From: a virus
Direction: 5' to 3' (one strand)
IMG/VR virus record: IMGVR_UViG_3300021956_000005
DNA length: 34,902 nt
The stretch's first letter is position 1. Every line of letters starts with the position of its first letter. Made by a program: the position numbers and the translations under genes. The notes under the pieces were generated by a model. That model did not search any database and had not been told where the DNA came from. It was given only the letters and a program-made list of their open reading frames with translations. Positions 1 through 34,902 of this stretch are shown here, piece after piece.

Positions 1-127
1 CAAAGGTCAAAGTCACCCAATGGCCTGAACGTCTTGCAATGAGGGCAGCGCTTCATTGAGCGCCCTGCCCTGGTATCCGCCATCCCGATGGCGAACGCAC
101 CAATGCAATGCCGGTCTCTTCATAAAC
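1..127. repeat. Terminal overlap, copy 1 (identical to 34776..34902)
   Basis: Direct base-by-base comparison of both ends gives 127/127 identical. The overlap lies inside coding sequence (Zn-ribbon ORF and ORF 53..268). Confidence 0.95.
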
Positions 128-6286: not shown

Positions 6287-6417
6287 TGCAATCACTTCCC
6301 GTTAAGTGGACTGTCAGTCCATCTACCGAAAACGTAGGTAATACTACTTACGCAGCTGACCAAGGTGTGATTGGTTTTGTGATCGTCATCTACAGGCCTT
6401 TGATAGCAATGGATTGG

Positions 6418-6466
6418 GTGGATTGCAAATCCATCTAGGGCGGTTCGACTCCGCCACGCGCCTCCA
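6418..6466 (+). other. attP core candidate: 3' two-thirds of a tRNA-Cys(GCA) gene (anticodon arm, variable loop, T arm, 3' acceptor strand, CCA)
   Basis: The fragment reads GTGGA-TTGCAAA-TCCAT CTAG GGCGG-TTCGACT-CCGCC ACGCGCC TCCA. It parallels E. coli tRNA-Cys from the anticodon stem onward. No upstream GGCGCGT pairs with the 3' acceptor strand, and the D arm does not fold, so this is a fragment and not a gene. Confidence 0.65.
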
Positions 6467-6608: not shown

Positions 6609-7646
6609 ATGGCCACCATCCGCAAGCGCCCGTCCGGGAGCTACGAAGTCACCATCCGCCGTAAGCTCCTGCCCCGGCCGATTTCCGTCTCGGCCGAGAC
6701 TGAAACTCAGGCCAAGGCCCTGGCTGAGCGCATCGAGGCGCAGCTCGATCTCGGCATCATTCCCGAAGATTTTCTGACCCTCCAGCCCCGCTCGTTCTGG
6801 AATGTCTCCAGCTGGACCGAAGAATACGAAAAATCCGGCAAACCCTCGGCCTCAGATCGCCCTCTGTTGAAAATCGTGCGCTCCGATCTCAAGACCCTGG
6901 CACTTAAGGATCTCAATCCAGTGAACCTTGAAAAGTGGATTCAGGCCATGAGGGCCCGGCGATTGAGACCCGGCAGCATCAAAAAGCGGGTGGGGGCCCT
7001 AGGCCGGTCGCTGGATCTCGCCGTACACCGCGAAATCCTGGTCTTTAACCCGATCCGGAATCTGCCCAAGAACTATGCCGCCTACAGCGAAGCCGATGGC
7101 GAAATCATCGAGGATGGCGTCCGCGATCGGCGGCTGGAACCCGGTGAAGAGGCGCGCCTCGATGCGCAGCTGCAACCTCATCCCGATCTCTGGCTCCTAT
7201 TTCATCTAGCTCTGGAGACCGCCATGCGGATGCGCGAAATGTTTACCCTGACCCTCGACCAGGTCGACCTTAAAAAACGCACGATTTTTCTGCAGAAAAC
7301 CAAGAACGGCGACAAACGCCAGGTGCCCTTGAGTTCGATAGCCCTCGGCTTTTTAACGGAGCGGATTCAGGGGGCCGATCCCAGCGCCCTGCTCTTTCCC
7401 TATTTTGATGGCCATCTCGATAACACCACCCGACGCATCAGCTATTACTGGTCCTCGATCACCGAAAAAGCGGGCATCGAAGACCTTCATTTTCATGATT
7501 TGCGTCATGAGGCCACCTGTCGCCTGTTTGAGCGGACCCCCATGTCGGATCTTGAAATTGCCACCATCACCGGTCATCGGGATCCCCGCATGCTCAAGCG
7601 CTATGCCAATTTGAGGGGCTCAGATCTGGCGCAGAAAATGTGGTGA
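6609..7646 (+). CDS. int: Tyrosine recombinase / phage integrase
   Basis: ETAMRMREM (Arg I), HFHDLRHEATCRL (H-x-x-R), GHRDPRMLKRYANL (His/Tyr). N-terminal SAM-like arm. Adjacent to xis and attP. Confidence 0.95.
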   Translation: MATIRKRPSGSYEVTIRRKLLPRPISVSAETETQAKALAERIEAQLDLGIIPEDFLTLQPRSFWNVSSWTEEYEKSGKPSASDRPLLKIVRSDLKTLALKDLNPVNLEKWIQAMRARRLRPGSIKKRVGALGRSLDLAVHREILVFNPIRNLPKNYAAYSEADGEIIEDGVRDRRLEPGEEARLDAQLQPHPDLWLLFHLALETAMRMREMFTLTLDQVDLKKRTIFLQKTKNGDKRQVPLSSIALGFLTERIQGADPSALLFPYFDGHLDNTTRRISYYWSSITEKAGIEDLHFHDLRHEATCRLFERTPMSDLEIATITGHRDPRMLKRYANLRGSDLAQKMW

Positions 7647-7672
7647 AAAAAAAAAGGGGGCCCGAAGGCCCC
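7646..7672 (-). terminator. Rho-independent terminator closing the minus-strand late/DGR operon
   Basis: The minus strand reads GGGGCC-TTCG-GGCCCC(C) followed by T10. The plus strand has only the A-run before the stem. Confidence 0.8.
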
Positions 7673-7691
7673 AGAATCGCGCTGCTGTGAA

Positions 7692-8174
7692 CTAGATTTC
7701 AATTTTGGCGGCTTCAATGAACAATAGATCCAAATCGCTATCCGACCATCCCATGCCGGCAGCAATCGAAAGCAACATTGGTGATTCGCGCCGATACTCG
7801 ATGGCATTAGTCCAGGCCAGTTTGACCAAGGGATCGGTGGAGGCATTGACGTAAGCCTCCACTGCATCGAGCGAGCCTTCCTGCAATAACACGGCCTTGG
7901 CCTGTAGCGGTGAGACGGCTTGCGGCACCTCGCTGGGTGGCGGTGTCCAGGTCGGCAATGCCGGCGGCTGGGCATTCGGGAAATCCGCGCGAGTTAGGCC
8001 ATAGCGCCCAATCACGCTATTGTCCTCAATTGCCACAAAACGGCGGTTGATGTCATCGCGCTGGATCAGCCACAGGCTTCCTTCTAAAAGCTGCATGAAT
8101 TCCGCATGCTCCACAGTCCCCTCCAGGGCGTCCAAATCCTCACGGGTGTTAATGATGGTCGTGGCCAAGCTCAT
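7692..8174 (-). CDS. Hypothetical protein (160 aa) immediately downstream of, and overlapping, the DGR RT gene
   Basis: The ATG at 8174 is preceded by GGAG and overlaps the RT 3' end by 26 nt. It is the last gene before the terminator. It has a Pro-rich linker (PPALPTWTPPPSEVPQ). No family recognised with confidence. Confidence 0.55.
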   Translation of the reverse strand: MSLATTIINTREDLDALEGTVEHAEFMQLLEGSLWLIQRDDINRRFVAIEDNSVIGRYGLTRADFPNAQPPALPTWTPPPSEVPQAVSPLQAKAVLLQEGSLDAVEAYVNASTDPLVKLAWTNAIEYRRESPMLLSIAAGMGWSDSDLDLLFIEAAKIEI

Positions 8175-9165
8175 AATGACTCTCCAGGTAATGCAACAGA
8201 TGGTGGGTATCCGCCCAGCGGGCATGTCCTGCCCAGGCGGCAATGAATTGATTCAGCGCCACGGGATCCCTATGGGTGATGGCGTTCTGAATTTTGCGTT
8301 TGGCCCGGATGACGGAATCCTTGCGTAACAATTTATGCGTAGGCCAAATCCGGTAGCCGAGGAAATTGATGCCGCGGGACGTATTAGCCACCTGCCATTT
8401 GCTGATGCGAAGCCCGAGCTGGGTTTCGGCAAAGGTGCTCATGCGGGTGAACGTCTCACGCAGCGATTCCGAATCCTGACCCAGCACAATGATGTCGTCC
8501 ATGTAGCGGGCCCAGTGCCGTTCCTCGAGATCAAAATGCAAGAACCGATCGACCGCGCCGCCATAGACATTGGCAAACAGCTGCGAGGTCAGGCTCCCAA
8601 TCGGAAGGCCCTGCCCTTGAGGTGGAATAATTTCCCGCAATACAGCCAAAGTCTGAGGGCAACCAATCTTCTTTTCGATCATCCGATGCAAGACCGCATG
8701 CTGAATGCTCGGAAAAAACTTTCGAAAATCGGTTTTTAAAAAATGCGTCGCTTGAGTCTTCCGAAGGCGTGACTGAATATGACGCACCCCGGCATGGGTC
8801 CCAAGCCCAGGGCGACACGCAAAGGTATAAGGCAATAGGCTTTTCTCGAAGATTGGGCCAATGACGTTGCAGACTGCATGCTGAACCAGGCGATCTTTGA
8901 AGCCCAGAGCCGAAATCAGTCGCGGCTTGGGTTCAAAGATGGTGAATTCTCGATAAGGGCCGATCTGATATCGGCCTTCCAAAAGCTCATCCTGAATCTG
9001 TTTCAGATGCAGCTGATCGTATTCCTTGAAATTGAGATAGCCCCACGTCAGCCGCTTGCGTTGCGTGGTTCGAAAATAGGCCTGCCGCAGATTGGCCATA
9101 TCGGCAATCTTTGGCATCAATTGATAGTGAGGGGCGCTCATGAATGCTGGCCGCGCTTTTCCCAT
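8149..9165 (-). CDS. DGR reverse transcriptase
   Basis: RT motifs include LPIGSLTSQLFANVY (the DGR-type I/LGxxxSQ motif) and YMDDIIVLG (catalytic YxDD). The gene lies directly downstream of avd and TR. Alternative start at 9141. Confidence 0.93.
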   Translation of the reverse strand: MGKARPAFMSAPHYQLMPKIADMANLRQAYFRTTQRKRLTWGYLNFKEYDQLHLKQIQDELLEGRYQIGPYREFTIFEPKPRLISALGFKDRLVQHAVCNVIGPIFEKSLLPYTFACRPGLGTHAGVRHIQSRLRKTQATHFLKTDFRKFFPSIQHAVLHRMIEKKIGCPQTLAVLREIIPPQGQGLPIGSLTSQLFANVYGGAVDRFLHFDLEERHWARYMDDIIVLGQDSESLRETFTRMSTFAETQLGLRISKWQVANTSRGINFLGYRIWPTHKLLRKDSVIRAKRKIQNAITHRDPVALNQFIAAWAGHARWADTHHLLHYLESHYELGHDHH

Positions 9166-9288
9166 CCGTGGTACTCAGCGCTCTGCCAGACCCTGAAACG
9201 TGTTCCCCGAAGGAGGATCCCACCGGCTGACCACATGTTGAAGTGGACGGCCTGCTGAGCCTTGACCGCAGCAGAGCGAAGATCATGT

Positions 9289-9408
9289 GTCACAGGCGCA
9301 CCGCAACCCGATGTTGTTGTTCGAGTTCGAGGCAGCGTTGTTCCAGTTCGACGAACGCGAACCGCAGTTCGCCCCGTTGTTCCAGTTGCCGCCAAAGATC
9401 GCCGCGTT
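9289..9408 (-). repeat. DGR template repeat (TR), 120 bp
   Basis: It aligns without gaps to 9838..9957. In the coding sense it carries 12 AAC codons and starts at the avd stop codon. Confidence 0.9.
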
Positions 9409-9796
9409 AATTCCCGGTAGACCCCTGCTTTTTCTTCCGTTTGATCCACATGTTCAACATCCCGCCGACCTCGCTGACCAGTCCCTGGGCAAACTCGAGT
9501 TGATGATGGCTCATGCAGCGCTGAACGTGAAGAAATCGCATCCAAAAGCGAAGATGCGCGAGTCCCGCATCTGCCGCGTAAAGCTTGCCGACCTGATTGG
9601 ATTTTCCGGCCTGAAAGAACAGGTCCGGTTGCCGCATCAGGCATTGCAGAAACAGATCGCGGGCCACGCCATGCTTTCGAGGTATCGACTGAGCAATCGG
9701 GTAAAGATACCCAATCACGCGTTCGAATTTCTCGACAATGGCCATTTGGTCGTAGCATGCGATCTGCTCATCCGGTTGTTGGGGTTCGTCGCTCAT
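9407..9796 (-). CDS. avd: Accessory variability determinant (Avd)
   Basis: A 129-aa basic helical protein (KFERVIGYLYPIAQSIPRKHGVARDLF ... LRFWMRFL) in the canonical position between target gene and TR. It resembles the Avd / 23S-rRNA-IVS four-helix-bundle family. Confidence 0.8.
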   Translation of the reverse strand: MSDEPQQPDEQIACYDQMAIVEKFERVIGYLYPIAQSIPRKHGVARDLFLQCLMRQPDLFFQAGKSNQVGKLYAADAGLAHLRFWMRFLHVQRCMSHHQLEFAQGLVSEVGGMLNMWIKRKKKQGSTGN

Positions 9797-9803
9797 CCTG
9801 AGC

Positions 9804-9819
9804 GGGCGCTTTCGCGCCC
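9804..9819 (-). promoter_or_regulatory. GC hairpin with GAAA tetraloop just 3' of the VR-bearing gene
   Basis: The minus strand reads GGGCGC-GAAA-GCGCCC, a 6-bp perfect stem. It begins 1 nt after the target-gene stop codon and ends 7 nt before the avd ATG. Confidence 0.7.
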
Positions 9820-11463
9820 TTAATCAAGGATCAGGTGGTCACAGGCGCACCGCAACCCGATGGTGCTGCTCGAGGTCGAGGCAGCGTTGTCCCAGAGCGA
9901 CGAACGCGACCCGCAGCCCGCCCCGGTGCCCCAGGCGCCGCCAAAGAGCGCCGCGTTGGGTGGGTTATACGATTGGCCACGACCCCCGGTATCGGACTGC
10001 CAGGCGGCTGTGGTGTTATAGGGTCCGCCGCGTTCCTGTCCCCAGACCCACATGACGCCGGTGGCCTGAATCAGGCCCCATTTGGAGGTATAGGCTGCAT
10101 TCAGAATGGTCGAGCCTTGATCGGTCCCGATGGAGGAGCCTTCGGTCGTTCCATAGGCTGCTGCCATGAATTCCGATTGGAACAAAGGTCGCTTGCCATA
10201 GGCATGGGCGACTTCCTGCGCTTCAAACCAGGTCAAAGAACCGTAGGCGGTCGAGCCATTGCCGCCATAGAGCGTCGGGATCTTTGGGGGTGAGGAGCCA
10301 TCCGCAATGGTGACGTTATATTTCGAGGTGCCATTGGTCCCGGGATCGGTATTGGTCAGATAAATATCGGCCCAGAAGCCACCCGCGATCAGCGCCATGC
10401 CGCGCGGATCGGGACAGGCCGGTCGGAATTTCAAATCCCAGAAGGAATACTGATTAATCTGTGCGGTCGTATTGCCGCCTGTCGTGCCCGTGGCATTGCC
10501 GCCCGGCGCATAGTGGAATCCGCCGACCTTACGCGCCCCCGTTGTGGGAGGTGAGGTGTGATTGGTGGTGGCCTCTAAAGTGCCATCGGTTTTGGCCCAG
10601 ATGGCATAGTCGGTGCCGGCTGTGGCGGTACCAGGCATCGTCACCACCGTACCCGAGGCAATCGTCTTGATGGCGCCATTGACCTCGACATACAGCGCGG
10701 TCTGCGTTGAGACCGTAAAGTTGCCGGTTTTACTGAAAAGAACGACCGTGGGATCGGCTTTTCGAAACAGGCCATACCCCGGCGCCAAGGCGGCAATGGC
10801 CTGAGCAATCCGCAATGGCGTCATGGTTCGAAGTGCCGTAACGCTTCCAGCCTCCATCTCGGCCTGTGTGGCTGCGGTTTGAGCCAAAAGACTGGCTGTG
10901 ACATCAACATCGACCGTCATCGTCTTGGCGGTTGTTCCTCCTTGAAGAAGAAAACCGACTGCTTGGGGCGTGACGCCCAGCCCAGGAGCTCCCCGCGCAC
11001 CGGTTAGGGAGATATTCCAATCGGCTTTGCTTGTGGATCCTGAAATGACTTGAATGTCAATGGTGAGCTGATCGGCGGCATAGGCCGTAACTTGGCCAAA
11101 ACCCCAAATGCTGGGCGCCGAAGCCGAAACCACAGTGACAAAAATACCCGCCGTATATTGCTCACCTGCCTGAACCGTAAAGGTTTTAGAGCCAATGACT
11201 GGTGACCATGCGGTAGTCGATGTTGAGACAAAGGCGCCGGCAATCGCCGCGGCTGAGGCGGCGCTGGCTGAGGCAGCTGCTGCGGAAGCTGCGGCTTCCG
11301 TTGCTTTGGTGACCGTATTGGCGGCAACGGCGACCGTTTGTGCCAGGGCAGGAACAAAACGCGTCCGATGGCCACCATTGGCTAGTCCGGTGCTGGGATT
11401 GCTGTCATCGGTAACGGTTGAGCCGTCACCACCAACTGAGGTTGCGAATGTAACGCTGCTCAC
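9820..11463 (-). CDS. DGR target: tail fibre / receptor-binding protein with C-terminal C-type-lectin (FGE-sulfatase-like) fold
   Basis: It is the last gene of the tail module. It has an Ala-rich N-terminal helix. The C-terminus carries GVMWVWGQE ... FGGAWG ... GLRCA, which resemble CLec-fold DGR variable proteins (Mtd-like). It contains the VR. Confidence 0.88.
   Translation of the reverse strand: MSSVTFATSVGGDGSTVTDDSNPSTGLANGGHRTRFVPALAQTVAVAANTVTKATEAAASAAAASASAASAAAIAGAFVSTSTTAWSPVIGSKTFTVQAGEQYTAGIFVTVVSASAPSIWGFGQVTAYAADQLTIDIQVISGSTSKADWNISLTGARGAPGLGVTPQAVGFLLQGGTTAKTMTVDVDVTASLLAQTAATQAEMEAGSVTALRTMTPLRIAQAIAALAPGYGLFRKADPTVVLFSKTGNFTVSTQTALYVEVNGAIKTIASGTVVTMPGTATAGTDYAIWAKTDGTLEATTNHTSPPTTGARKVGGFHYAPGGNATGTTGGNTTAQINQYSFWDLKFRPACPDPRGMALIAGGFWADIYLTNTDPGTNGTSKYNVTIADGSSPPKIPTLYGGNGSTAYGSLTWFEAQEVAHAYGKRPLFQSEFMAAAYGTTEGSSIGTDQGSTILNAAYTSKWGLIQATGVMWVWGQERGGPYNTTAAWQSDTGGRGQSYNPPNAALFGGAWGTGAGCGSRSSLWDNAASTSSSTIGLRCACDHLILD
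9838..9957 (-). repeat. DGR variable repeat (VR), 120 bp, last 40 full codons before the 6-codon tail of the target gene
   Basis: 104/120 identical to TR. 15 of the 16 differences sit at TR adenines (coding sense). The invariant 3' part encodes IGLRCACD. Confidence 0.9.
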
Positions 11464-12326
11464 GCGATGATCTCCTTGATTTCGTAGGCTGTCGTAAATC
11501 GGACGGGGTCCGGGTTTTCAATCGGGGTCAGTGACCGCAGGCGGCCGAGAAAGCTTTGACGCATCAGGTTATTGCCATCATCCTTATCCCAGATCAGGAG
11601 CACCTCATCGGTGACTCCGAGGATGCGGCTGGCACCCAGCGCCGTTGTCATGGCTTCAGTCTCACCCAGCCAGTCAAGGCCAAAGCGGCAGACGCGATAT
11701 TTAGGTCGCTGATCGTAGTATTCAGCACCACCAATGGCTTCCTCAATCATGGATCCATCCTCATAGCCCAGGCTCCAGCTAAAGGACGCGTTGTTTTCGG
11801 GAAGAAATGAATTGCCGACAAACAGGCGGCCGATTTCCACATAACCATCGCTATTTGTCAGGTCGCTGAACTCAATCAGCCAGTAGCGATAGGTGACAAT
11901 GTTTTCAATAAATTCAAAAGCAAGGCCTGGGTAATAGGCCGCCTCTTCAGGATCCATTTTCCAGGTCCAAAAGGAATCCGATTCCCATTCCAGACCACCA
12001 TAAATGCCATCCGCCATGTCGACCCAAACATCTTTCCAGCCGGAATCATAAAGTGGGGTTGAAAAAGAGGCGCTGGTATTTCCTCGAATGCGGAATTGAG
12101 CTGAAGTGCTGAGGTTGTGGCCTACCACCGCAAACAAGTTCACAATTCGCTCTTTATCAAGCGTGATCTGAAATTGGGTAGAAGCGGTTGCCGTATTGGT
12201 TGATCGCGTTTTCTTGCTAATCCTTCGATCTTGAAGGTTGGTTAAAGGCAGGGAGGCTAGCCAGGATCCGCCCGAGAGCGTGCATTTATCAGCTAGATTC
12301 GGAAACCCCATGATAATGTTTGACAT
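11460..12326 (-). CDS. Putative tail-tip / baseplate structural protein
   Basis: ORF track. It sits between the distal-tail gene and the fibre, with ATGA-type overlap with the fibre gene. No family recognised. Confidence 0.4.
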   Translation of the reverse strand: MSNIIMGFPNLADKCTLSGGSWLASLPLTNLQDRRISKKTRSTNTATASTQFQITLDKERIVNLFAVVGHNLSTSAQFRIRGNTSASFSTPLYDSGWKDVWVDMADGIYGGLEWESDSFWTWKMDPEEAAYYPGLAFEFIENIVTYRYWLIEFSDLTNSDGYVEIGRLFVGNSFLPENNASFSWSLGYEDGSMIEEAIGGAEYYDQRPKYRVCRFGLDWLGETEAMTTALGASRILGVTDEVLLIWDKDDGNNLMRQSFLGRLRSLTPIENPDPVRFTTAYEIKEIIA

Positions 12327-12329
12327 GAT

Positions 12330-13865
12330 TTAGCCCCAAAGCGTGAGATCAAGGGTTCCAATGCGATAGTCGGGCTGTATTCCGATCACCCGGAAAAGCT
12401 TGCCCAAGGTATAACCAAATCGGTCAACCTTGACGGTTACTACATTCCCCAAATCAATGGTGTCAGTCGTGCCTGGCAAAACCTTAACCGTCAGGTTGAT
12501 TCGATCCTTCCTGTTTTTGTATAGATTAAGGCGCCGAGTAGCTTCTGTTTGCGCAGCTCCAGAATCAGTAAGAAGCGAATCGAAAGATAAAACCGGAGAT
12601 AGCAGGTGGGCCGTTAATACAGAAGAATCAGTCGCAAAAACTGTTCGATAGTCTTCAGCTAACCAGGCTTTAAATGCTGCTCCCACTGAAGTGGCCAGGC
12701 CAGATGTAATAACAGTGAAGTTTTTGGCATACCCCAGCCGGACCTGATAGGCCGGCACACCCTTGTCAGTATCTGCAGTTGCGGTTCTTTCAATATCAAT
12801 AATTTCTTGCTGCGTAAAAGTGGCAACAGAAGCGCCTGAAGGGGCATTTAGTTGAGCCATCCGAAATTGTCCGAGTCGATCAAAGCTATACCAGGCGCCA
12901 ACCGAATTACTGAGCGCATCCAATGCCGAATTGATGGTTTCATTTTCACTCAGATAAATTCCAAGGGTAGCGCTACCGGTTGCAGAATCTAGCGCTGTCA
13001 CGTCTGCGGCGACAATATCGCCTGCTGCAATACCACCCGGTCCGGTTACGATTGATTTAATGATTTGAGCTGCGGTTCGATCGGCGGCAACGGAACCCTG
13101 TGTTGCACTAGCCGTGATCGGGCCTGCAGGAGTCGATCCCAGTCGAAAATACCCGCCTGCAAGCCATGCCCGATAGGTGCCAGCCGATGGCGCGTTAGTC
13201 TCCATGTCAGCCTGTGAGCTATAGACTGCTCCAGCGGTCAGAGCAACGCCCTGATCATAGACCTGATCCAAAGAGGCCAACGGGCCATCATTGAGTTGAT
13301 AAATCAATCGCGCCGTGTTCACGATCGGCGGGCTGACGTTAAAAACCTTGCCGTAAAGCTTGGGCTTTGGTTTACCTTTTAAATCATCTGCAGTCCCTTC
13401 AAGGCCCGCAGGTAGTGCATTCGATCCTGCATATAAGGTCGTTTGAATCGGGCGGTCAAGTTCGGCCAGGCGATCCCGAATCCGGATGGTCAGACTTTGC
13501 CAGGTGAATTCTGGCTGCTCCATCGTGCCCTTGATCACGGTTGTAAAGCTGGCGCGGGCTGCTTTGCTATCTCCAAGGAGTACCCTGAAATTGCGGCCGT
13601 CAAAACCGTAATCCGCCATGCTATCGAGCGTTCCAAGGTTCACAAGCTCGATTAGGCCGTAGCCAGTCGTTGAGGCCCCGCCCGTGGATCCTTTAGAAAA
13701 AACATCACGCCGCATCAGGCCGGGCTGTTTAAGTTTTGGCTCATAAAAAGTGCTGGCAGGCGTATCGCTGGCCTTGGACGTAAAGCCATGCGTTGAAAAA
13801 TAAAGAGTTCTGACGCCTGAAATGGACGCGTCGTACGCCTCAATTTCTGCAAGGTAAATCAACAT
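12330..13865 (-). CDS. Putative minor/distal tail protein
   Basis: A 511-aa ORF whose start overlaps the tape-measure stop by 1 nt. The call rests on position. Confidence 0.45.
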   Translation of the reverse strand: MLIYLAEIEAYDASISGVRTLYFSTHGFTSKASDTPASTFYEPKLKQPGLMRRDVFSKGSTGGASTTGYGLIELVNLGTLDSMADYGFDGRNFRVLLGDSKAARASFTTVIKGTMEQPEFTWQSLTIRIRDRLAELDRPIQTTLYAGSNALPAGLEGTADDLKGKPKPKLYGKVFNVSPPIVNTARLIYQLNDGPLASLDQVYDQGVALTAGAVYSSQADMETNAPSAGTYRAWLAGGYFRLGSTPAGPITASATQGSVAADRTAAQIIKSIVTGPGGIAAGDIVAADVTALDSATGSATLGIYLSENETINSALDALSNSVGAWYSFDRLGQFRMAQLNAPSGASVATFTQQEIIDIERTATADTDKGVPAYQVRLGYAKNFTVITSGLATSVGAAFKAWLAEDYRTVFATDSSVLTAHLLSPVLSFDSLLTDSGAAQTEATRRLNLYKNRKDRINLTVKVLPGTTDTIDLGNVVTVKVDRFGYTLGKLFRVIGIQPDYRIGTLDLTLWG

Positions 13866-16800
13866 CAGGCGACCGCCCCTGCCAGCTTGTTGGCTGACTC
13901 CACCGAGGACAGGCGATCATCAATAGAGGTCAGAATTTTCATCAGCCCCTGATATCCCGCCTGGTCAACCCGAATTCCGGCGCTGACTGCATCCGTAACC
14001 GCATCCAGCTTCTCTGAATTGTTGTTGCCGGCAAGCATTTCCTTAGTCTGATTTGCGGTATAAACCATCCCTGGTCGACTGAATCTGACTAGCTCTGGAC
14101 CTTTTTCACCGACCATAGCAATGCCTTCTGAGGCCAGCCCGCCCTGGGCAAATCCAGGAATGAATCCCTTGGCAAGAAGATCCTTGTATTCAGCGCTCTG
14201 CCTAAACTGATAGGCCAATTCATCAGCTGTGATATGACCCCCCATCAGCTGCGCAAGCCGGCCCGTGTAGGCGCCTTCATTCTCCGGCTCTCGGCCCAGC
14301 AGCTGCTGGTAGTAGAAACGAATCATTCGCCGTGAGTAGTCTTCATTCAGTATCTGATAGGTTTCATCCTGGAAGGGGTTGTAGCCCATTCGGCCGCCGG
14401 GAACTTGTGGTGCAGTCGAAATCGGGACCGGTTTTGGCATCGGTATCGGTTGAACCACAGGCGCTGGAACTGGGACAGGCGTCGGTGCTACGGGAGCTGC
14501 TGCTTTACCCGCTGCGAGTGCCGCAATTGCCGCTTGATAATTGTTCATGGCGGTAATCATGTTATTCACGCCTTGAGCAACCGAGATCACGCCATCAGTT
14601 ATATTTCCAATTCCCGTGCTGATGCCCAACAATGCACCATAAGATTTTTCAGCAGCTATGAGCTGCTCTTTTGCGGTATTGGCTTGTTGCTCACTGAATG
14701 AAATTGCTTCAGTGACCGCCTTAATGACTTCTTCGCGATCTGCTTGAAACTGCAGGCTGGATGCGTTGTATTCTCTTGAGGCATCAAGAAACTCCTTGCC
14801 CACCGTATCCAGCTGTCCAATCGCGCCCTCATTGCCTAGAGCGGCCAGAGCGCTAACTCTTCGAAACTCCATTGCCGCGGATTCATATCGGCGCTCAGGT
14901 GAGGCCTGAAGATTTGTCAGTTCCAGCAGATAGGTTTTTAAGGTCTTGGAGGTCTGGATAAATCGATCTTGGGTTTTTTGTAGGTTCTGATAAGCATCCC
15001 TAAGTCCTGACAAGGCTTCACTTGAAGCTTCCTCAAGAGTTTTAAGCATTTCCTCATGGGCTTTTTTGGCTGCTTCATATTCAGCCTCTTTTGCCTTTCG
15101 AATTGCCTCTTCCTGTTTTTGAGCGTAACCAGCTGCAGCATCTGAAGCACTCGCAAATGCCGGCGCAAGAAGCACCAATTGGTTATAGAGGGCCTCTTGA
15201 GAAGGCACCAAAAGGTTTAGCCCATCAAGATATTTTCTAAATTCTTCCTTGCTCTGCGGCATCGATACGCCGAGTGCATCAAACTGTTTTTTGAGATCTG
15301 CCAATTGCTTAGCTGTTTTTTCTTCTGGCGTGAAAAAAGCATCTTCATAGGATTGCTTGATTTTTCGCGCAGCTGCTTCCGCTTCCTCGGCCGCTTTTCG
15401 CGCGGCATCCACAGCAGCCTGCGCGGCTTCGGCCTGCGCGTCTGCCAGATTTTTTGCAGCATCGGTAAAGTCAGAGAACGCCCCGCTCAAGGATAAAAAC
15501 TGCGCAAACAGTTTTTTGCCTTCAGTTGTAGTTTTGTCGATGCCCATTGCAATGGCATAAAACTGGTCTTTTGATTGAGGGAGACCATAGCCAAGCCGCG
15601 CAAATGCTTTCGTTAGCTCTTCGCTGTCTGAAGTCAGCTTTTGCTGGTCGGTCATAAAGTTATCGCGAAAAGTTTGCAGCGCTTCTTCAAACTTACTCAA
15701 GCCGCCGGCAGCATTGATCATTTCGCGATCAATGTTTTCGGTTCCAAATCCTGCCCCGCGCATCAGTCGGGTCACATTGGAAATTTGCTGATAAGCGGAA
15801 GCAATATCCTCTGCAGAACCCGTTAAGTCATTGACATACTGACGCGTTCCGGCGCTCAAATCCCCCTGGGCCATGATGACCTGACGCGTAATTTCAGCCG
15901 CTATGTCTCCTTCTTTCTCCTTGATTTCACTGTAGCTGATCGTGGTCATTCCTAATTGCTCAAGAATGCCTTTGGCGCGCGCGGAGCCTTCTGAAACGCG
16001 AATTAATGTGCCATAAAGCCCTTCATCAATTCGTTGAAACTCTTTTAGCGCGGGGTTAATTTGCTCTGCCCAGCGGTCTGCCTGCGCCGAAAGAGCCGCA
16101 GCAATATTCTCGGCATTTTTTTTACCGTCCTTGCCTAAGGGAATCCTGGGCATTTTTATGGCCAGGTTATTGATCTGTGCATCAAGACCCGGCCCTGACA
16201 TGCCGAGGAGCTCTGCAGATTTTCCGATTGTGCTGTAAATGCTTTTGAACGATTTTGAAAGCGCCTGAGCAATTGTGCTATCTAGCTTTCCAAAAATTGT
16301 TTCCAAGTTTTGAGAGGTGCTGCCCAACAAACCAAAAAGCGTCGAAGACTTTTTGGTTACCAGGACGTCCGCAAAGGTTTTTCCCTTAACCAAGGCGCCT
16401 TCGATAATGTCCCACAGCGATTGAGAGACCAGCTTAATGCCCTGACTGACCAGTTCCCGGGTGGTCTTGGTGCCGCCCCAAATCATTCCAGAAATGGGGT
16501 CAAATCCGGGCGCATTGGATGTTTTGGTCGCACCCAGATTAAGTTTTGCAGTATCGATTTTGAAAACCTTGGCTACAGCTGCCCCGGCTGAGTCCATGGC
16601 GTTAGCCAGGCGATTAAGATCTGCCGCCATCCCCTTGGTGTAATCAAGGTCATTACTTGAATTGTTGGCAATGAGATCGAGAGCATCTCGAATCGATGTG
16701 CTCATTTCTTCAGAGCCCAACATGGTTGCTGTGCTCCGCTTAAAGGCATCTTCCTGTTGCTTTTTCAGGTCTTCTGCAGAAACGCCACTTTGACTGCCTC

Positions 16801-19039
16801 CACTGCCACCGCTGATCATGATGCCTAGGCCGGCCATGAGGGCAACCCAGGCAGCTACGCGTGCAAAAGCAGAATAAGGATCGCCTTGGGTACCCTGGTT
16901 GGCAGCACCCTCAACCGCTTTGGCCTGAGCTTTAGCGGCGGACTGAGCAATCTCTTTCGTGGTGTTGACGGAAGAGATGATTCCCATTTGCTCAAGCGAT
17001 GCAGTGAAGAAATTCAGCATGCCGCCCATCTGTTCCATCTGCTTGACTGCAGACATCACAGATTGAGCCATTTCAAAGGCTCGGAAAACCTTGACGGCGC
17101 CCCCCATGGCTTCGTAACCCTTGGTCCCCTTCTGGAAAAATCCCTGAGCCGCTTGGGTCATATCTCCATAGGCTTTGATTTGCGTTCTTGAGCTTTTGAG
17201 CATGGCGTCTTGCTCAATCTCAAGCTTTCTCGTGGGATTCTTTTTAATATCTTCGGCAGCCTGAATGCTGATCGTTGCCTGTTGCTTGGCATATTCCGCC
17301 AAGGCCACAGTCATTCCGCCAATGGCTGTTCCCACATCCCCAAACGCATCAGAAAGGCCCGAAGCGATCTCCTTGGCATATTCCAAATTGGAAGAGAGAA
17401 CCTCGAGAGTCCGCAGTGCCTCCTCCCGCACATTCGTTTCGCCATCGATTCGAATGTCATTGAACTGTTTGGTTGCCTCAGCCATCTTGGCCATCGATTC
17501 CAGCTGGATCTGCGCTTTTTCTTCAGGCAGCGCCTGCTGCTGACTTAGCAGGGATTGCAGTTCCGTCTGTAGCTTGATCCGCTCGGATTGCTTGAGGTTA
17601 TATTTATCTGCGGCATCGATCTCCAGGTTGACCCCGTTAATTCGAGCCATCAACGCAGCTTCATCTTTGACCAGTTGCTCTTCTTTTAAGCGCGTTTCCT
17701 CGGCAATCAGGGCTTCCTGCTTTTTCCGGAGTTCATCGGCAATCTGCAGCTTTTGGTCCTGATTTTCAGCAGCCTTCATTTCAAGGCGTGCCGTTTCTTC
17801 GGCTTGCTTGCGCTCATTGTCAAATCGCATGGCGCTGGTTTTGGCCTGCGCGTCATACAACCGGGCAGCATCTTCGGCAGTCTTCACGTTGGCATCGATT
17901 GTCGCCTTGAATGCCGCTTCCGCATCGCTTGCGCCTTTTTTGGCGGTTTTGGTGGTCTTGGCAAAATGTGTGGCGACCGCAGTTGCTGCCTTTTCGCTTT
18001 TAGCAGCCAGTTCATCAATTGGGGTTTGGCCTTGCCCAAGCTTCATCAGTCGCTGCACTTCAGGATCATTTTGAGGGTCCACAGCATTGGTTTTTGTGCC
18101 TGTGATTTCCGCCAGGTCCAATCTTATGGTTGAAATGGCATCAGCAAGCTCAAGCCATGCCCAAACATTGGCCTGAGCTAGATACGTAACAACTTTCGCT
18201 ACTGGATCAACCATGGCATTGAAATTGTTAGCCATCAATTCAATGGTGGACGCTAATTCTGCGCTTGTCCCATTAGCCTGGTCGGCCTGCCCGATATAAG
18301 AGGTTGCAGCGTTTTCCAGCATTTGCCAGGCCTGCCCAACCGTGGTTTGCATGCTGGAAGCTTCCTGGCTCAGTGCGCTTGATTGGGATTCCAGGGCCTT
18401 GATGACCTGCTCTGAGGTCAACTTGCCCTCAGTCGCCATTTGCCGGAGGGCGCCGATCGGTACCTGAAGGCCATCGGCAATCGCTCGGGCCAGCCGCGGG
18501 CCATTCTCCATGACGGAATTGAATTCTTCGCCGCGCAGCACGCCTGAAGCCAAGGCTTGGCTCAGCTGCGTGGTAACGCTTGCAGCTTCCGAGGTTGAGG
18601 CGCCGGAGACTTTTAGAGCCTTGCCGACACTGTCGACGACCTTAAGCACTTGCGCTTGGCTGGCCCCCATGTCTCGCATTCCCACCGCAATCCGGCTATA
18701 GAGGCTGACCGTTTCGACCAGTGCCGTTTTATTGTTTTGGGCAATGGTAAACAGCGATTTTTGTGCATTGGCATATTCATCGGCGGAAGCTGTCGCCAGC
18801 TTCAACTTGGAATTCATGTTGGTATAGGCATCAGTCGTCTCAATCAATTGCTTGACTGAGAATGCCGCACCCATGGCAGCAAAAGCGCTTTTGGCCACGC
18901 TCGCCATTGAGCTCAAATTGGTCTCAATGGATTTGGCTGATTTACCAACTTCGCCCAGGCTCTGACGAATGCGATTAAATTCCAAATCGGCAGTTTTTCC
19001 ATCCGCCGTGATTTTGATGCCAAGCTGTAAATCGCCCAT
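13865..19039 (-). CDS. Tail tape measure protein (1724 aa) with C-terminal DUF4214-like segment
   Basis: The size and the long Ala/Gln/Glu/Lys coiled-coil composition are typical, and the gene follows the G/GT chaperone. The C-terminal motif reads GFAQGG ... MVGEKGPELV. LLGREPENEGAYTGRLAQL ... SAEY at 14177-14338 resembles DUF4214. Confidence 0.93.
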   Translation of the reverse strand: MGDLQLGIKITADGKTADLEFNRIRQSLGEVGKSAKSIETNLSSMASVAKSAFAAMGAAFSVKQLIETTDAYTNMNSKLKLATASADEYANAQKSLFTIAQNNKTALVETVSLYSRIAVGMRDMGASQAQVLKVVDSVGKALKVSGASTSEAASVTTQLSQALASGVLRGEEFNSVMENGPRLARAIADGLQVPIGALRQMATEGKLTSEQVIKALESQSSALSQEASSMQTTVGQAWQMLENAATSYIGQADQANGTSAELASTIELMANNFNAMVDPVAKVVTYLAQANVWAWLELADAISTIRLDLAEITGTKTNAVDPQNDPEVQRLMKLGQGQTPIDELAAKSEKAATAVATHFAKTTKTAKKGASDAEAAFKATIDANVKTAEDAARLYDAQAKTSAMRFDNERKQAEETARLEMKAAENQDQKLQIADELRKKQEALIAEETRLKEEQLVKDEAALMARINGVNLEIDAADKYNLKQSERIKLQTELQSLLSQQQALPEEKAQIQLESMAKMAEATKQFNDIRIDGETNVREEALRTLEVLSSNLEYAKEIASGLSDAFGDVGTAIGGMTVALAEYAKQQATISIQAAEDIKKNPTRKLEIEQDAMLKSSRTQIKAYGDMTQAAQGFFQKGTKGYEAMGGAVKVFRAFEMAQSVMSAVKQMEQMGGMLNFFTASLEQMGIISSVNTTKEIAQSAAKAQAKAVEGAANQGTQGDPYSAFARVAAWVALMAGLGIMISGGSGGSQSGVSAEDLKKQQEDAFKRSTATMLGSEEMSTSIRDALDLIANNSSNDLDYTKGMAADLNRLANAMDSAGAAVAKVFKIDTAKLNLGATKTSNAPGFDPISGMIWGGTKTTRELVSQGIKLVSQSLWDIIEGALVKGKTFADVLVTKKSSTLFGLLGSTSQNLETIFGKLDSTIAQALSKSFKSIYSTIGKSAELLGMSGPGLDAQINNLAIKMPRIPLGKDGKKNAENIAAALSAQADRWAEQINPALKEFQRIDEGLYGTLIRVSEGSARAKGILEQLGMTTISYSEIKEKEGDIAAEITRQVIMAQGDLSAGTRQYVNDLTGSAEDIASAYQQISNVTRLMRGAGFGTENIDREMINAAGGLSKFEEALQTFRDNFMTDQQKLTSDSEELTKAFARLGYGLPQSKDQFYAIAMGIDKTTTEGKKLFAQFLSLSGAFSDFTDAAKNLADAQAEAAQAAVDAARKAAEEAEAAARKIKQSYEDAFFTPEEKTAKQLADLKKQFDALGVSMPQSKEEFRKYLDGLNLLVPSQEALYNQLVLLAPAFASASDAAAGYAQKQEEAIRKAKEAEYEAAKKAHEEMLKTLEEASSEALSGLRDAYQNLQKTQDRFIQTSKTLKTYLLELTNLQASPERRYESAAMEFRRVSALAALGNEGAIGQLDTVGKEFLDASREYNASSLQFQADREEVIKAVTEAISFSEQQANTAKEQLIAAEKSYGALLGISTGIGNITDGVISVAQGVNNMITAMNNYQAAIAALAAGKAAAPVAPTPVPVPAPVVQPIPMPKPVPISTAPQVPGGRMGYNPFQDETYQILNEDYSRRMIRFYYQQLLGREPENEGAYTGRLAQLMGGHITADELAYQFRQSAEYKDLLAKGFIPGFAQGGLASEGIAMVGEKGPELVRFSRPGMVYTANQTKEMLAGNNNSEKLDAVTDAVSAGIRVDQAGYQGLMKILTSIDDRLSSVESANKLAGAVA

Positions 19040-19051
19040 GGTATGCCGCCC

Positions 19052-19366
19052 TTAGTCTTTCGGAAGTTTGGTTTCGGCCCATTGCTCCAATAGGAGAATG
19101 GTTCGGCTGCCCATGTGGCCCGCAATGCCGACCAGTGCGGCAGAAACTAAAGGATCGATTTCGCCAGCTTCACAGAGCCAAAAGGTCAGGACGCCAGCAA
19201 AACCCGCCGTGACAATCTCACCGACCAATTCCAGAATGTTGAAGGCGCGCGATTTGCCTTCACGAATCTTTTGTATAAATGAAACCACGCCACCCACCAT
19301 GGAAAGTCCCAAGACCCAGGAGTAGGTCAAGATGTCGTAACTGGTAGGGTCTTTCGATGGGTCCAT
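19052..19366 (-). CDS. Holin-like membrane protein (104 aa, about 3 TM helices)
   Basis: The ATG at 19366 follows GAGGA. Hydrophobic segments: ILTYSWVLGLSMVGGVVSFI, ILELVGEIVTAGFAGVLTFWL, LVSAALVGIAGHMG. It lies directly downstream of the endolysin. Longer starts at 19393 or 19429 are possible. Confidence 0.6.
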   Translation of the reverse strand: MDPSKDPTSYDILTYSWVLGLSMVGGVVSFIQKIREGKSRAFNILELVGEIVTAGFAGVLTFWLCEAGEIDPLVSAALVGIAGHMGSRTILLLEQWAETKLPKD

Positions 19367-19400
19367 CAGGTTTTCCTCTTTATGAGATGCCATGGCAGGC

Positions 19401-19772
19401 CTATCTAGGCAGCTGCCAGTGGGGTCCATCCTTAAAACTGGTCCAGTCGCCTCCCCACTCGATCTGAACTCCCAATTCCTGAGCTGCTGTCTTCATGGCT
19501 TCGGAAAGGGGGTAATAATCCTCCCAGTTCCAGGACGGCTTGCCGTCTTTCAAGGGGGCCAAATCCACGGCATGACCCGTGATGTGGCGTGAATTCAGGG
19601 TGCGGGTTGCCCCTTTATCAAAAAGGTATTTCTGTCGTTCCCGAGTCCTCAGTCCTTCAATCACCATAAAATCAATTGGTGTGATCTCAAGGGCTCGATG
19701 CACCACCCGAACCAGATCGGGATGCAAGCCTCTTAGCCGTTGCTGTGATTTCTCGGAAAGACAAAATCCCAT
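19401..19772 (-). CDS. Peptidase M15 (VanY / L-Ala-D-Glu or D-Ala-D-Ala peptidase type) endolysin
   Basis: LHPDLVRVV ... VIEGLRTRERQ ... SRHITGHAVDL ... FKDGPHWQL, i.e. an H-x6-D ... H zinc-ligand pattern typical of M15 phage endolysins. Confidence 0.85.
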   Translation of the reverse strand: MGFCLSEKSQQRLRGLHPDLVRVVHRALEITPIDFMVIEGLRTRERQKYLFDKGATRTLNSRHITGHAVDLAPLKDGKPSWNWEDYYPLSEAMKTAAQELGVQIEWGGDWTSFKDGPHWQLPR

Positions 19773-19774
19773 GC

Positions 19775-20589
19775 TTATTTCCTCGGTTTATTGAGAAGCG
19801 GCAAAGCAAAACGCTCCATTTCAATAATTCCTTTGAAGATTGAGCGGCGCTCTTTTTGATACCCCAGAAGCCGAATGGTCACTTCAATCTCGCTGTAACG
19901 CAGTCCATGCCAGATCATTTGTCCTGCCAGGGTGATTTCTTTTCGCCACTGGGTTTGGAGTGCCAGAAACACCAGCACTGTGGTCCAGTTTTCTGACCAA
20001 ACCTCAAAATGATCTTCATTCGGCAGTGCAATCGATTCCATTTCGCTTTCATCGATTCCGAAGGCGCGAAAAGCGCCTTCAAGATCATCGGATCCAATCG
20101 GTTCTGCTACATTGGGGTTTGCCCAATAGCGCGCCGCTTCAATCAGTTTTTTCTTTTGCCCTCGCCGGAGTTGGCCTCGTTGTAGGCGGCCTTGATGGCG
20201 GCATAGATCCCCGGGGTGAAGCGTATGAGCCTGACCAGGTTGTCCCGGTTAAATTCCATCGGGCCCTCATCGTCAGAAACATCTTTCCAGCCACAAAGGA
20301 TCTCCAGAAGGTCATCCGCCATCTGCTCAGAGGACAGGCTGTTTTTTCCTTGGCGAATGAGTTCAGCGGTGAATTTGCTATTGACTAGCGCAAGGTCGCC
20401 ATCATGTTCAGCCATGAGATTGGCCCAGATCTGCGCACCATCGGCCATTTGCCGATCGCGGACCTGGTCAATATCGAGACGTTTAAACTTGAAAATGATG
20501 GTGATCTTGGTGGACTGTCCATTCTCCTGAATCGCATGCACACTGGCCGGGTAGAAGAAACTGTCTGATACGCTGAGCTTGAATCCCAT
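19775..20589 (-). CDS. Tail assembly chaperone frameshift product (gpGT-like; -1 shift at 20146-20152)
   Basis: The -1 frame is open from the slippery site (..LIEAARYWANPNVAEPIGSDDLEGAFRAFGIDESE..) into track ORF 19775..20041, which has no independent RBS context. Frame arithmetic was checked by hand. Confidence 0.6.
20143..20589 (-). CDS. Tail assembly chaperone (gpG-like)
   Basis: It sits between tail tube and tape measure. It is acidic and ends in a slippery heptamer. GAGGG RBS. Confidence 0.7.
   Translation of the reverse strand: MGFKLSVSDSFFYPASVHAIQENGQSTKITIIFKFKRLDIDQVRDRQMADGAQIWANLMAEHDGDLALVNSKFTAELIRQGKNSLSSEQMADDLLEILCGWKDVSDDEGPMEFNRDNLVRLIRFTPGIYAAIKAAYNEANSGEGKRKN
20146..20152 (-). 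promoter_or_regulatory. Programmed -1 ribosomal frameshift heptamer A_AAA_AAC
   Basis: The minus strand reads GGC AAA AGA AAA AAC TGA. The X_XXY_YYZ heptamer lies immediately before the G stop codon. Confidence 0.6.
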
Positions 20590-34685: not shown

Positions 34686-34831
34686 CAAGTCGAGTGAGCC
34701 AATCGGTGGTTAGTTTTGCGAATGGCTCTGGCTTTACATTCCTTGCACCATGGCTGCATGTGCTTGACGCCATGGCAAAGGTCAAAGTCACCCAATGGCC
34801 TGAACGTCTTGCAATGAGGGCAGCGCTTCAT
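34685..34831 (-). CDS. Small zinc-ribbon protein (48 aa; CPHC ... CKEC)
   Basis: Hand-read ORF MKRCPHCKTFRPLGDFDLCHGVKHMQPWCKECKARAIRKTNHRLAHST. Its 5' part lies in the terminal overlap, and a truncated copy sits at nt 1-56. Confidence 0.5.
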   Translation of the reverse strand: MKRCPHCKTFRPLGDFDLCHGVKHMQPWCKECKARAIRKTNHRLAHST

Positions 34832-34902
34832 TGAGCGCCCTGCCCTGGTATCCGCCATCCCGATGGCGAACGCACCAATGCAATGCCGGTCTCTTCATAA
34901 AC
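34776..34902. repeat. Terminal overlap, copy 2 (identical to 1..127)
   Basis: Direct comparison, 127/127 identical. Confidence 0.95.

Follow-up and report, generated by a model that had tools for sequence, protein, structure and literature searches.

The virus genome IMGVR_UViG_3300021956_000005 (34,902 nt; hereafter the window, meaning the whole stretch of DNA analyzed) very probably carries a complete and active diversity-generating retroelement (DGR) of the type known from Bordetella phage BPP-1, in which a target gene, avd (an accessory gene), a template repeat (TR), and the reverse transcriptase (RT) succeed one another and which would hypermutate the receptor-binding tip of the distal tail fiber. 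All elements of the cassette lie on the minus strand at 7.6-11.5 kb (Table 1). An earlier note on this DNA, made from the letters alone, had placed the DGR parts here in the gene order of BPP-1; the open reading frame (ORF) list, a repeat finder, Pfam, and Rfam recovered them at or near the same positions, all on the minus strand, and their order is identical to that of the annotated BPP-1 record. Because RT, Avd, target, and spacer RNA match BPP-1 component by component, we regard the element as a genuine homologue of the BPP-1 cassette.

Template and Variable Repeats

TR and variable repeat (VR) differ almost exclusively at adenines of the TR. The repeat finder returned one 120-nt direct repeat (9289-9408 / 9838-9957, 87% identity), one copy of which is the VR in the target gene and the other the TR, which opens inside the avd stop codon (9408-9289), where the earlier note had begun a 120-bp template repeat. 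Aligned gap-free over 120 nt, the copies show 16 mismatches, 15/16 of which fall at TR adenines (hypergeometric P = 5e-11 for adenine bias). The adenines occupy 12 AAC, 2 ATC, and 1 GAC codon-equivalents; 24 of them (11 AAC and 2 ATC codons) are internal and mutable, enough for an Mtd-type C-type-lectin scaffold to carry about 1.4e14 different peptides. The TR shares 77% identity with its BPP-1 counterpart, AAC codons falling at matching positions in both, and the G at 9293 is the equivalent of BPP-1 TR G117, the first templated nucleotide. The VR core runs 9957-9838, and the BPP-1 convention prolongs the VR through the initiation of mutagenic homing (IMH) element to ~9825. No second or remote VR was found in the window.

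The sequences at which homing would be directed are also recognizable, with the role of the IMH taken from published work (PMC5758913, PMC3240598). The VR 3′ end TGTGACCACCTGATCCTTGAT and the BPP-1 IMH TGTGACCACCTGATTCTTGAG agree at 19/21 positions (last 21 nt), and the TR counterpart (IMH*) departs after TGTGAC with a 1-nt indel, which constitutes the IMH/IMH* asymmetry. The G/C-rich stretch GGGTTGCGGTGCGCC is the same in TR and VR. Directly 3′ of the TAA stop codon of the target stands the GC hairpin that the earlier note had also seen after this gene, with a fold of -17.1 kcal/mol for its 34-nt context.

Target Tail-Fiber Gene

The target residues 233-547 align end to end with five Mtd crystal-structure variants (1yu0-1yu4; also 2iou) at E ~1e-93, the best structure match being PDB 1yu4 (1.5e-93, residues 233-547), and the VR therefore sits in the Mtd C-type-lectin domain. 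Pfam mtd_2nd is matched at 1.6e-16, PHROG 11262 ("tail protein") covers residues 176-546, and the C-terminal 315 aa are 52% identical to BPP-1 Mtd residues 57-381. As judged by these alignments, residues 233-547 are a homologue of the second domain of Mtd together with its C-type-lectin receptor-binding domain. The expectation of a 547-aa target with a C-terminus of C-type-lectin character was thus borne out when tested by sequence. That the protein ends in GLRCACD was not, as this motif ends the repeat-encoded part and the protein itself ends ...GLRCACDHLILD. An unrelated N-terminal anchor, Ala-rich in one stretch, makes up residues 1 to ~175-232; Pfam and PHROG returned no match for the first 232 aa. 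By blastn, window 10299-10440, within the Mtd-like domain, also matches gene 17 of the T7 records LR745708 and LR745707 at ~70% nt identity; these may be engineered T7 fibers with an Mtd-derived segment.

Avd, Spacer RNA, and Reverse Transcriptase

The 129-aa gene that follows the hairpin, taken earlier as Avd-like, passes curated Avd models (Pfam bAvd, 96 bits against a cut-off of 40, 2.2e-27; NCBIfam equivalog NF033474, 99 bits against a cut-off of 80) and is 63% identical to BPP-1 Avd. A 206-aa ORF in another frame (9138-9758, minus strand) shares sequence with avd, the TR, and a portion of the spacer; we rejected it as a real gene since the avd frame passes those models. Gene callers in ENA and Logan relatives prefer this ORF over avd (L090-L092: 8417-9037), so automated annotation of such phages misses the Avd gene.

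The DGR spacer (Sp) RNA matches Rfam RF03022 over its full length (1-127) at 97.4 bits (gathering score 50), the sole Rfam match in the window. It keeps the GUGGUCAGC motif, whose A, at 9228, is the counterpart of Sp A56 in BPP-1, the nucleotide that primes cDNA synthesis there through its 2′-OH (PMC6182149).

The longest ORF for the RT spans 8149-9165 (338 aa). Its upstream ATG at 9165 is missing in the related loci L008, L010, and L013, the ATG at 9141 (Met9) is kept in all close relatives, and the alignment with the BPP-1 RT (bRT) starts at Met9 of the long ORF. The RT start is therefore probably 9141, which gives a protein of ~330 aa and a spacer of ~140-147 nt as in BPP-1, in place of the ~120 nt first estimated. 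The RT carries both motifs previously noticed, IGSLTSQ and YMDD, which agree with the DGR signature [I/V/L]GxxxSQ and the catalytic YxDD, matches Pfam RVT_1, is 63% identical to bRT, and keeps the equivalents of bRT R74 and I181, residues that promote adenine mutagenesis (PMC7826257). Among PDB sequences the best match is 8ub7 of the bRT series (E = 6e-142) and the next best a group II intron RT (1e-17), with group II intron and retron RTs at 1e-17 or worse. Identity as a group II, retron, or Drt RT was rejected on scores below the NCBIfam cut-offs (group_II_RT_mat 111.6 vs 300; Retron St85 46 vs 235; Drt3a 45 vs 200; Drt2 38 vs 390), and Rfam returned no intron RNA or msr/msd family in the window. 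The RT thus belongs within the DGR clade, as the earlier reading required. All ORFs of the cassette are undisrupted, with catalytic and DGR-signature residues retained.

Relatives and Natural Variation

An exact RT protein look-up returned no record, and megablast of 24 kb against 50,697 GenBank phages returned no match; BPP-1 and its kin were matched only with blastn (~66% identity). GTDB species representatives included no close host genome, the best RT being 66% identical (an Akkermansiaceae metagenome-assembled genome), followed by Thiobacillus and Pandoraea (61-62%). IMG/VR yielded >80 contigs with RTs 54-98% identical, and a search with the TR pattern carrying N at each adenine yielded three further contigs. 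Nearly all related contigs have TR and VR at the same spacing, and the records of the related IMG/VR and ENA contigs carry no DGR annotation.

Across 12 close metagenomic elements, the VR differs at 183/322 TR-adenine sites versus 14/1118 non-adenine sites. The VRs are all distinct, and every one of the 24 internal adenines varies in at least 3 of the 12 elements. Three boundary adenines (those of the first AAC and of the GAC 3′ of the initiation site) are invariant across the 12, which is what initiation at the G117 equivalent and a homology-dependent 5′ boundary would predict. The TRs of these elements are 93-100% identical to that of the window even with flanks at 77-79%; in L010 the TR (1497-1616) is 100% identical and the flanks are 77% identical. 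Other relatives have TRs 93-98% identical with flanks at 77-89%, positions synonymous in the VR frame included. Conservation of the TR beyond its flanks suggests nucleotide- or RNA-level selection or recent TR exchange.

Variation at TR adenines extends to near-identical phages. The locus L090 (ERZ4225182 NODE_90) shares 97.3% nt identity with the window over 10.4 kb and ~99% in the tail genes, yet 14/120 VR positions separate the two; 13 of these lie at TR adenines, and the fourteenth is a synonymous change private to the window. The comparison shows adenine-targeted diversification at strain level in nature. L090 is also mosaic, with the RT region ~90% identical versus ~99% for the tail genes. 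Its two repeats (L090 8218-8337 and 8767-8886) disagree at two positions at which the VR has A and G but the TR of L090 has G and C, and the VR there equals the window TR; together with the mosaic identities, this suggests recent recombination of avd-TR-RT, after which the VR was not rewritten. Further relatives include L009 (IMGVR_UViG_3300034198_011473), 93-97% identical across tail genes, and L011 (IMGVR_UViG_3300043449_002656), with 98% aa identity in the RT. On the evidence of the compared VRs, the lineage of the window phage is demonstrably diversifying, and the adenine-site VR differences among relatives support the earlier suggestion that the phage very likely diversifies its receptor-binding protein. 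Three other loci (L016, L066, and L068) have three TR-like matches each, which implies a pair of VRs and, with them, two target genes.

Alternative Explanations

Several observations weigh against a complete and active element in this genome. The VR differences of relatives record diversification of the lineage and not necessarily present activity of this genome. No sigma-70-like promoter was found in 7600-11600, including near avd, and expression of the cassette is accordingly only inferred: with a strong intrinsic terminator directly following the bbp4-like gene next to the RT, where it ends a tail / DGR / bbp4-like transcription unit, the cassette is probably read as the end of the late operon. 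The G/C-rich element before the IMH holds three T's, versus pure G/C in BPP-1. The stem of the hairpin is 6 bp, versus 8 bp in BPP-1. Finally, the lone non-adenine mismatch between the repeats (TR 9361 T vs VR 9910 G) departs from strict adenine specificity. The earlier note had called every part present and intact; the parts are present, and the hairpin stem falls below the BPP-1 optimum of 8 bp.

The impure GC element, the single non-adenine mismatch, and the short stem would each fit a DGR that was recently inactivated, its VR the frozen product of past diversification, as would the two non-adenine differences of the L090 VR from its own TR, which suggest that no rewriting followed the TR change or recombination. 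BPP-1 needs its hairpin, deletion of 2 bp from the 8-bp stem markedly lowers homing, and surveyed phage DGR hairpins have stems of 7-10 bp and a 4-nt GRNA loop, with a BPP-1 optimum of 8-10 bp (PMC3240598). However, hairpins of relatives have 5-8-bp stems with compensatory changes and loops of GAAA, GACA, or GGAA, all fitting GRNA, and 6 bp is the commonest form (15/24 matched relatives), in a clade whose VRs all differ. We regard the short stem as a lineage trait but retain it as a caveat. The remaining non-adenine change is synonymous (GGT to GGG), the reading frames are intact and retain their catalytic and signature residues, the spacer RNA clears its Rfam threshold by a wide margin, and a relative with ~99% identical tail genes has 13 adenine-site VR differences. 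We therefore consider a fossil element improbable.

An active element might instead diversify a protein other than the receptor-binding fiber, such as one that adheres to non-host surfaces or is involved in superinfection. Receptor binding is deduced only from Mtd homology and from a position ending the tail module, and the N-terminal 175-232 aa are uncharacterized. Set against this, the target stands at the end of a tail module made up of the tape-measure protein (TMP), a 511-aa protein, a 288-aa protein, and the target itself; identity is 52% across the Mtd receptor-binding region, with variable codons placed as in BPP-1; and among viral DGR targets, tail proteins predominate (PMC8144416). 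Such a role is very improbable, more so than inactivation. That the TR/VR pair is an assembly or duplication artifact, as might be imagined for an assembled contig with a 127-nt terminal overlap, we dismiss, because the mismatches are adenine-specific (P = 5e-11), TR and VR each stand in their expected functional context, and the same layout recurs in BPP-1 and in >80 independent contigs. Its adenine-only differences are repeated in dozens of independent assemblies.

Proposed Mechanism

For the active DGR that we favor, the mechanism follows from homology to BPP-1, with the steps taken from published work (PMC6182149, PMC7826257, PMC3240598, PMC12875486). The avd-TR-spacer region would be transcribed, probably within the late tail operon, and a complex of RT and Avd would bind the structured spacer RNA. 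The 2′-OH of spacer adenosine 9228 would then prime cDNA synthesis starting at TR G9293, and the RT would copy the TR faithfully except opposite adenines, where any nucleotide may be inserted. The cDNA is predicted to replace the VR (9957-9838), guided by the IMH and by the GAAA-loop hairpin after the stop codon, with IMH* shielding the TR from overwriting. A rewritten VR could let the phage shift its receptor specificity.

A Conserved Neighbor of the Reverse Transcriptase

The 160-aa product of the bbp4-like gene (ORF160) comprises an N-terminal domain (~1-65) and a C-terminal domain (~81-160). A homologue of the N-domain overlaps or abuts the RT 3′ end in 86/91 related loci with room for the gene, among them BPP-1, whose Bbp4 (L001 1527-1775, annotated "hypothetical") is 36% identical to it. 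The gene that comes after belongs to 33 unrelated clusters, including endolysins and integrases, and this variability of the downstream neighbor argues that the N-domain is tied to the RT rather than to the gene on its other side. The bbp4-like gene keeps its position while chassis, target N-terminus, and next downstream gene change. Of the 50,697 annotated phages, only Bordetella DGR phages carry the N-domain; the C-domain is also present in Achromobacter and Caulobacter phages that have no DGR. L066 and L068 have the bbp4-like gene beside the extra target, ~3.8 kb upstream of the RT, and not after it.

ORF160 has no Pfam or NCBIfam family, no PDB sequence match with a 33-sequence profile, and no PDB fold match. 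Its AlphaFold model is confident (pLDDT 90.9) and shows two domains, and BFVD fold matches are almost all uncharacterized small phage proteins, with one labeled "tail fiber assembly-like". None of 43 database relatives is functionally named, and the JGI label "HD-GYP domain-containing protein" stands on P0038, which shares only the C-terminal domain. The protein has no hydrophobic segments. Membership in a lysis cassette was considered, as an endolysin follows in BPP-1 and in L090-L095 (GH108 in the latter), and rejected as a general explanation, since the downstream gene is variable and is an integrase in the window. The name "bbp4" is absent from the literature searched. Reconstitution of BPP-1 homing in E. 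coli needs only avd-TR-brt and target elements (PMC12875486), and the bbp4-like gene is therefore not essential for retrohoming.

We tentatively suggest, with somewhat less than even confidence, that the bbp4-like protein is a fifth conserved component of the BPP-1-clade cassette. One speculative role is that of a chaperone or adaptor for the Mtd-type fiber tip that moves along with the portable cassette; modulation of some post-cDNA step of retrohoming in the native host is less likely.

Genome Context

Window positions 1-127 recur exactly at 34776-34902, and this terminal 127-nt repeat indicates that the genome is complete at ~34.8 kb (34,775 bp), being either circularly closed or terminally redundant; its G+C content is 52%. 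The window encodes a large terminase, a portal, an S78 protease-Phage_capsid (HK97-type) fusion, a tail tube, a tail assembly chaperone (TAC), and a 1724-aa TMP, and the tail module closes with the TMP, the 511-aa protein, the 288-aa protein, and, last, the target gene. No sheath gene was found among window proteins. The capsid-protease fusion, tail tube, TAC, and TMP without a sheath support an HK97-like siphovirus chassis. A LydA-type holin (PF16083) and an M15-peptidase endolysin lie between the TAC and tape-measure genes (19052-19772, minus strand); they place a lysis cassette midway through the tail operon, which is unusual.

The chassis had earlier been described as lambda/HK97-like with a tRNA-Cys attP. 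The HK97-like siphovirus part stands; in place of a tRNA-Cys gene there is a partial attP core. ARAGORN called zero tRNAs in the window. A low-threshold Rfam search found a tRNA-Cys-like fragment (6394-6463, plus strand; 28.5 bits on a tRNA-clan Rfam model) just upstream of the tyrosine integrase; its anticodon loop carries GCA and its T-arm is intact, but its acceptor stem is broken or mismatched. Such a pattern is usual for attP cores that descend from the 3′ portion of tRNA genes, and the fragment is probably one of these.

Table 1. Positions of the DGR cassette and neighboring features in the window
Feature	Position	Strand	Details
Target gene, distal tail fiber	9820-11463	-	547 aa
VR	9838-9957	-	120-nt ungapped core, target residues 503-542
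IMH region, VR 3′ end	9825-9858	-	G/C-rich GGGTTGCGGTGCGCC then TGTGACCACCTGATCCTTG
Target-recognition hairpin/cruciform	9804-9819	-	GGGCGC-GAAA-GCGCCC, 6-bp stem, GAAA loop
avd, accessory variability determinant	9407-9796	-	129 aa
TR	9289-9408	-	120-nt core, 27 adenines; with IMH* to ~9282
DGR spacer (Sp) RNA	9146-9277	-	Rfam RF03022 Phage_DGR
DGR RT	8149-9141	-	~330 aa from conserved ATG at 9141
bbp4-like gene ORF160	7692-8174	-	160 aa; start overlaps RT stop by 26 nt
Intrinsic terminator	7648-7672	-	GGGGCC-TTCG-GGCCCC then T9 (stem 7672-7657)
Tyrosine integrase	6609-7646	+	
Tape-measure gene	13865-19039		1724 aa
Tail assembly chaperone	20143-20589		

Comparison with Known Systems

The cassette resembles that of BPP-1 (genus Rauchvirus) in how its parts are ordered and oriented, mtd(VR)-avd-TR-brt corresponding to target-hairpin-avd-TR-spacer-RT in the window, and in a GAAA-loop hairpin after the stop codon, a spacer RNA of one Rfam family with the priming-A motif kept, a bbp4 homologue overlapping the RT 3′ end, and variable codons of the target at matching positions. 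The phages themselves differ: BPP-1, a podovirus of 42.5 kb, has a tRNA-His attP, whereas the window is a ~34.8-kb HK97-type long-tailed temperate phage with a partial tRNA-Cys attP core. In the 547-aa target of the window, an unrelated anchor of ~175-232 aa replaces the first 56 Mtd residues; the BPP-1 TR is 134 nt with 23 A's, compared with a core of 120 nt and 27 A's here; the bbp4-like gene of the window has an extra C-terminal domain; and no lysis cassette follows its DGR. The IMG/VR and ENA relatives (L090, L009, and L011) have the same chassis and the same cassette, but each has its own VR, diverging at TR-adenine positions.

Wu et al. (2018) described 12 Mtd-type targets ("category a"), one of them with an N-terminal extension (PMC5758913). 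The window shares with these Mtd-domain targets a VR in an Mtd-type C-type-lectin domain, an avd-TR-RT arrangement (B type), and a phage context; however, the one reported extension has a tail-collar fiber motif, and the N-terminus in the window falls in no Pfam or PHROG family. Roux et al. provide a large-scale catalogue of viral tail-protein DGRs, in which viral DGR targets are mostly tail proteins (PMC8144416).

Of the first 89 loci, 73 carry the Mtd-like C-terminal module, whereas only 3 have the N-terminal 175 aa of the window and 7 the N-terminal 56 aa of BPP-1. The prevalence of the C-terminal module against these rare N-termini, together with the mosaic structure of L090, argues that fiber tip and retroelement move between virion types via new anchors. 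The Mtd-like C-terminal module and the avd-TR-RT-bbp4-like block thus behave as a portable cassette on differing anchors.

Implications

Phage tail-fiber DGRs are already known and have been catalogued by the tens of thousands, so the finding is not new in kind. Its interest is as a natural replicate of the BPP-1 model system in which every cis element can be compared, and the comparison shows which changes are tolerated, namely a stem of 6 bp, a GC element that is not pure, and another fiber anchor and virion type. The conserved bbp4-like neighbor offers a testable candidate in this system. Finally, movement of the Mtd tip and the avd-TR-RT module between short- and long-tailed phages is relevant to the engineering of programmable host range.

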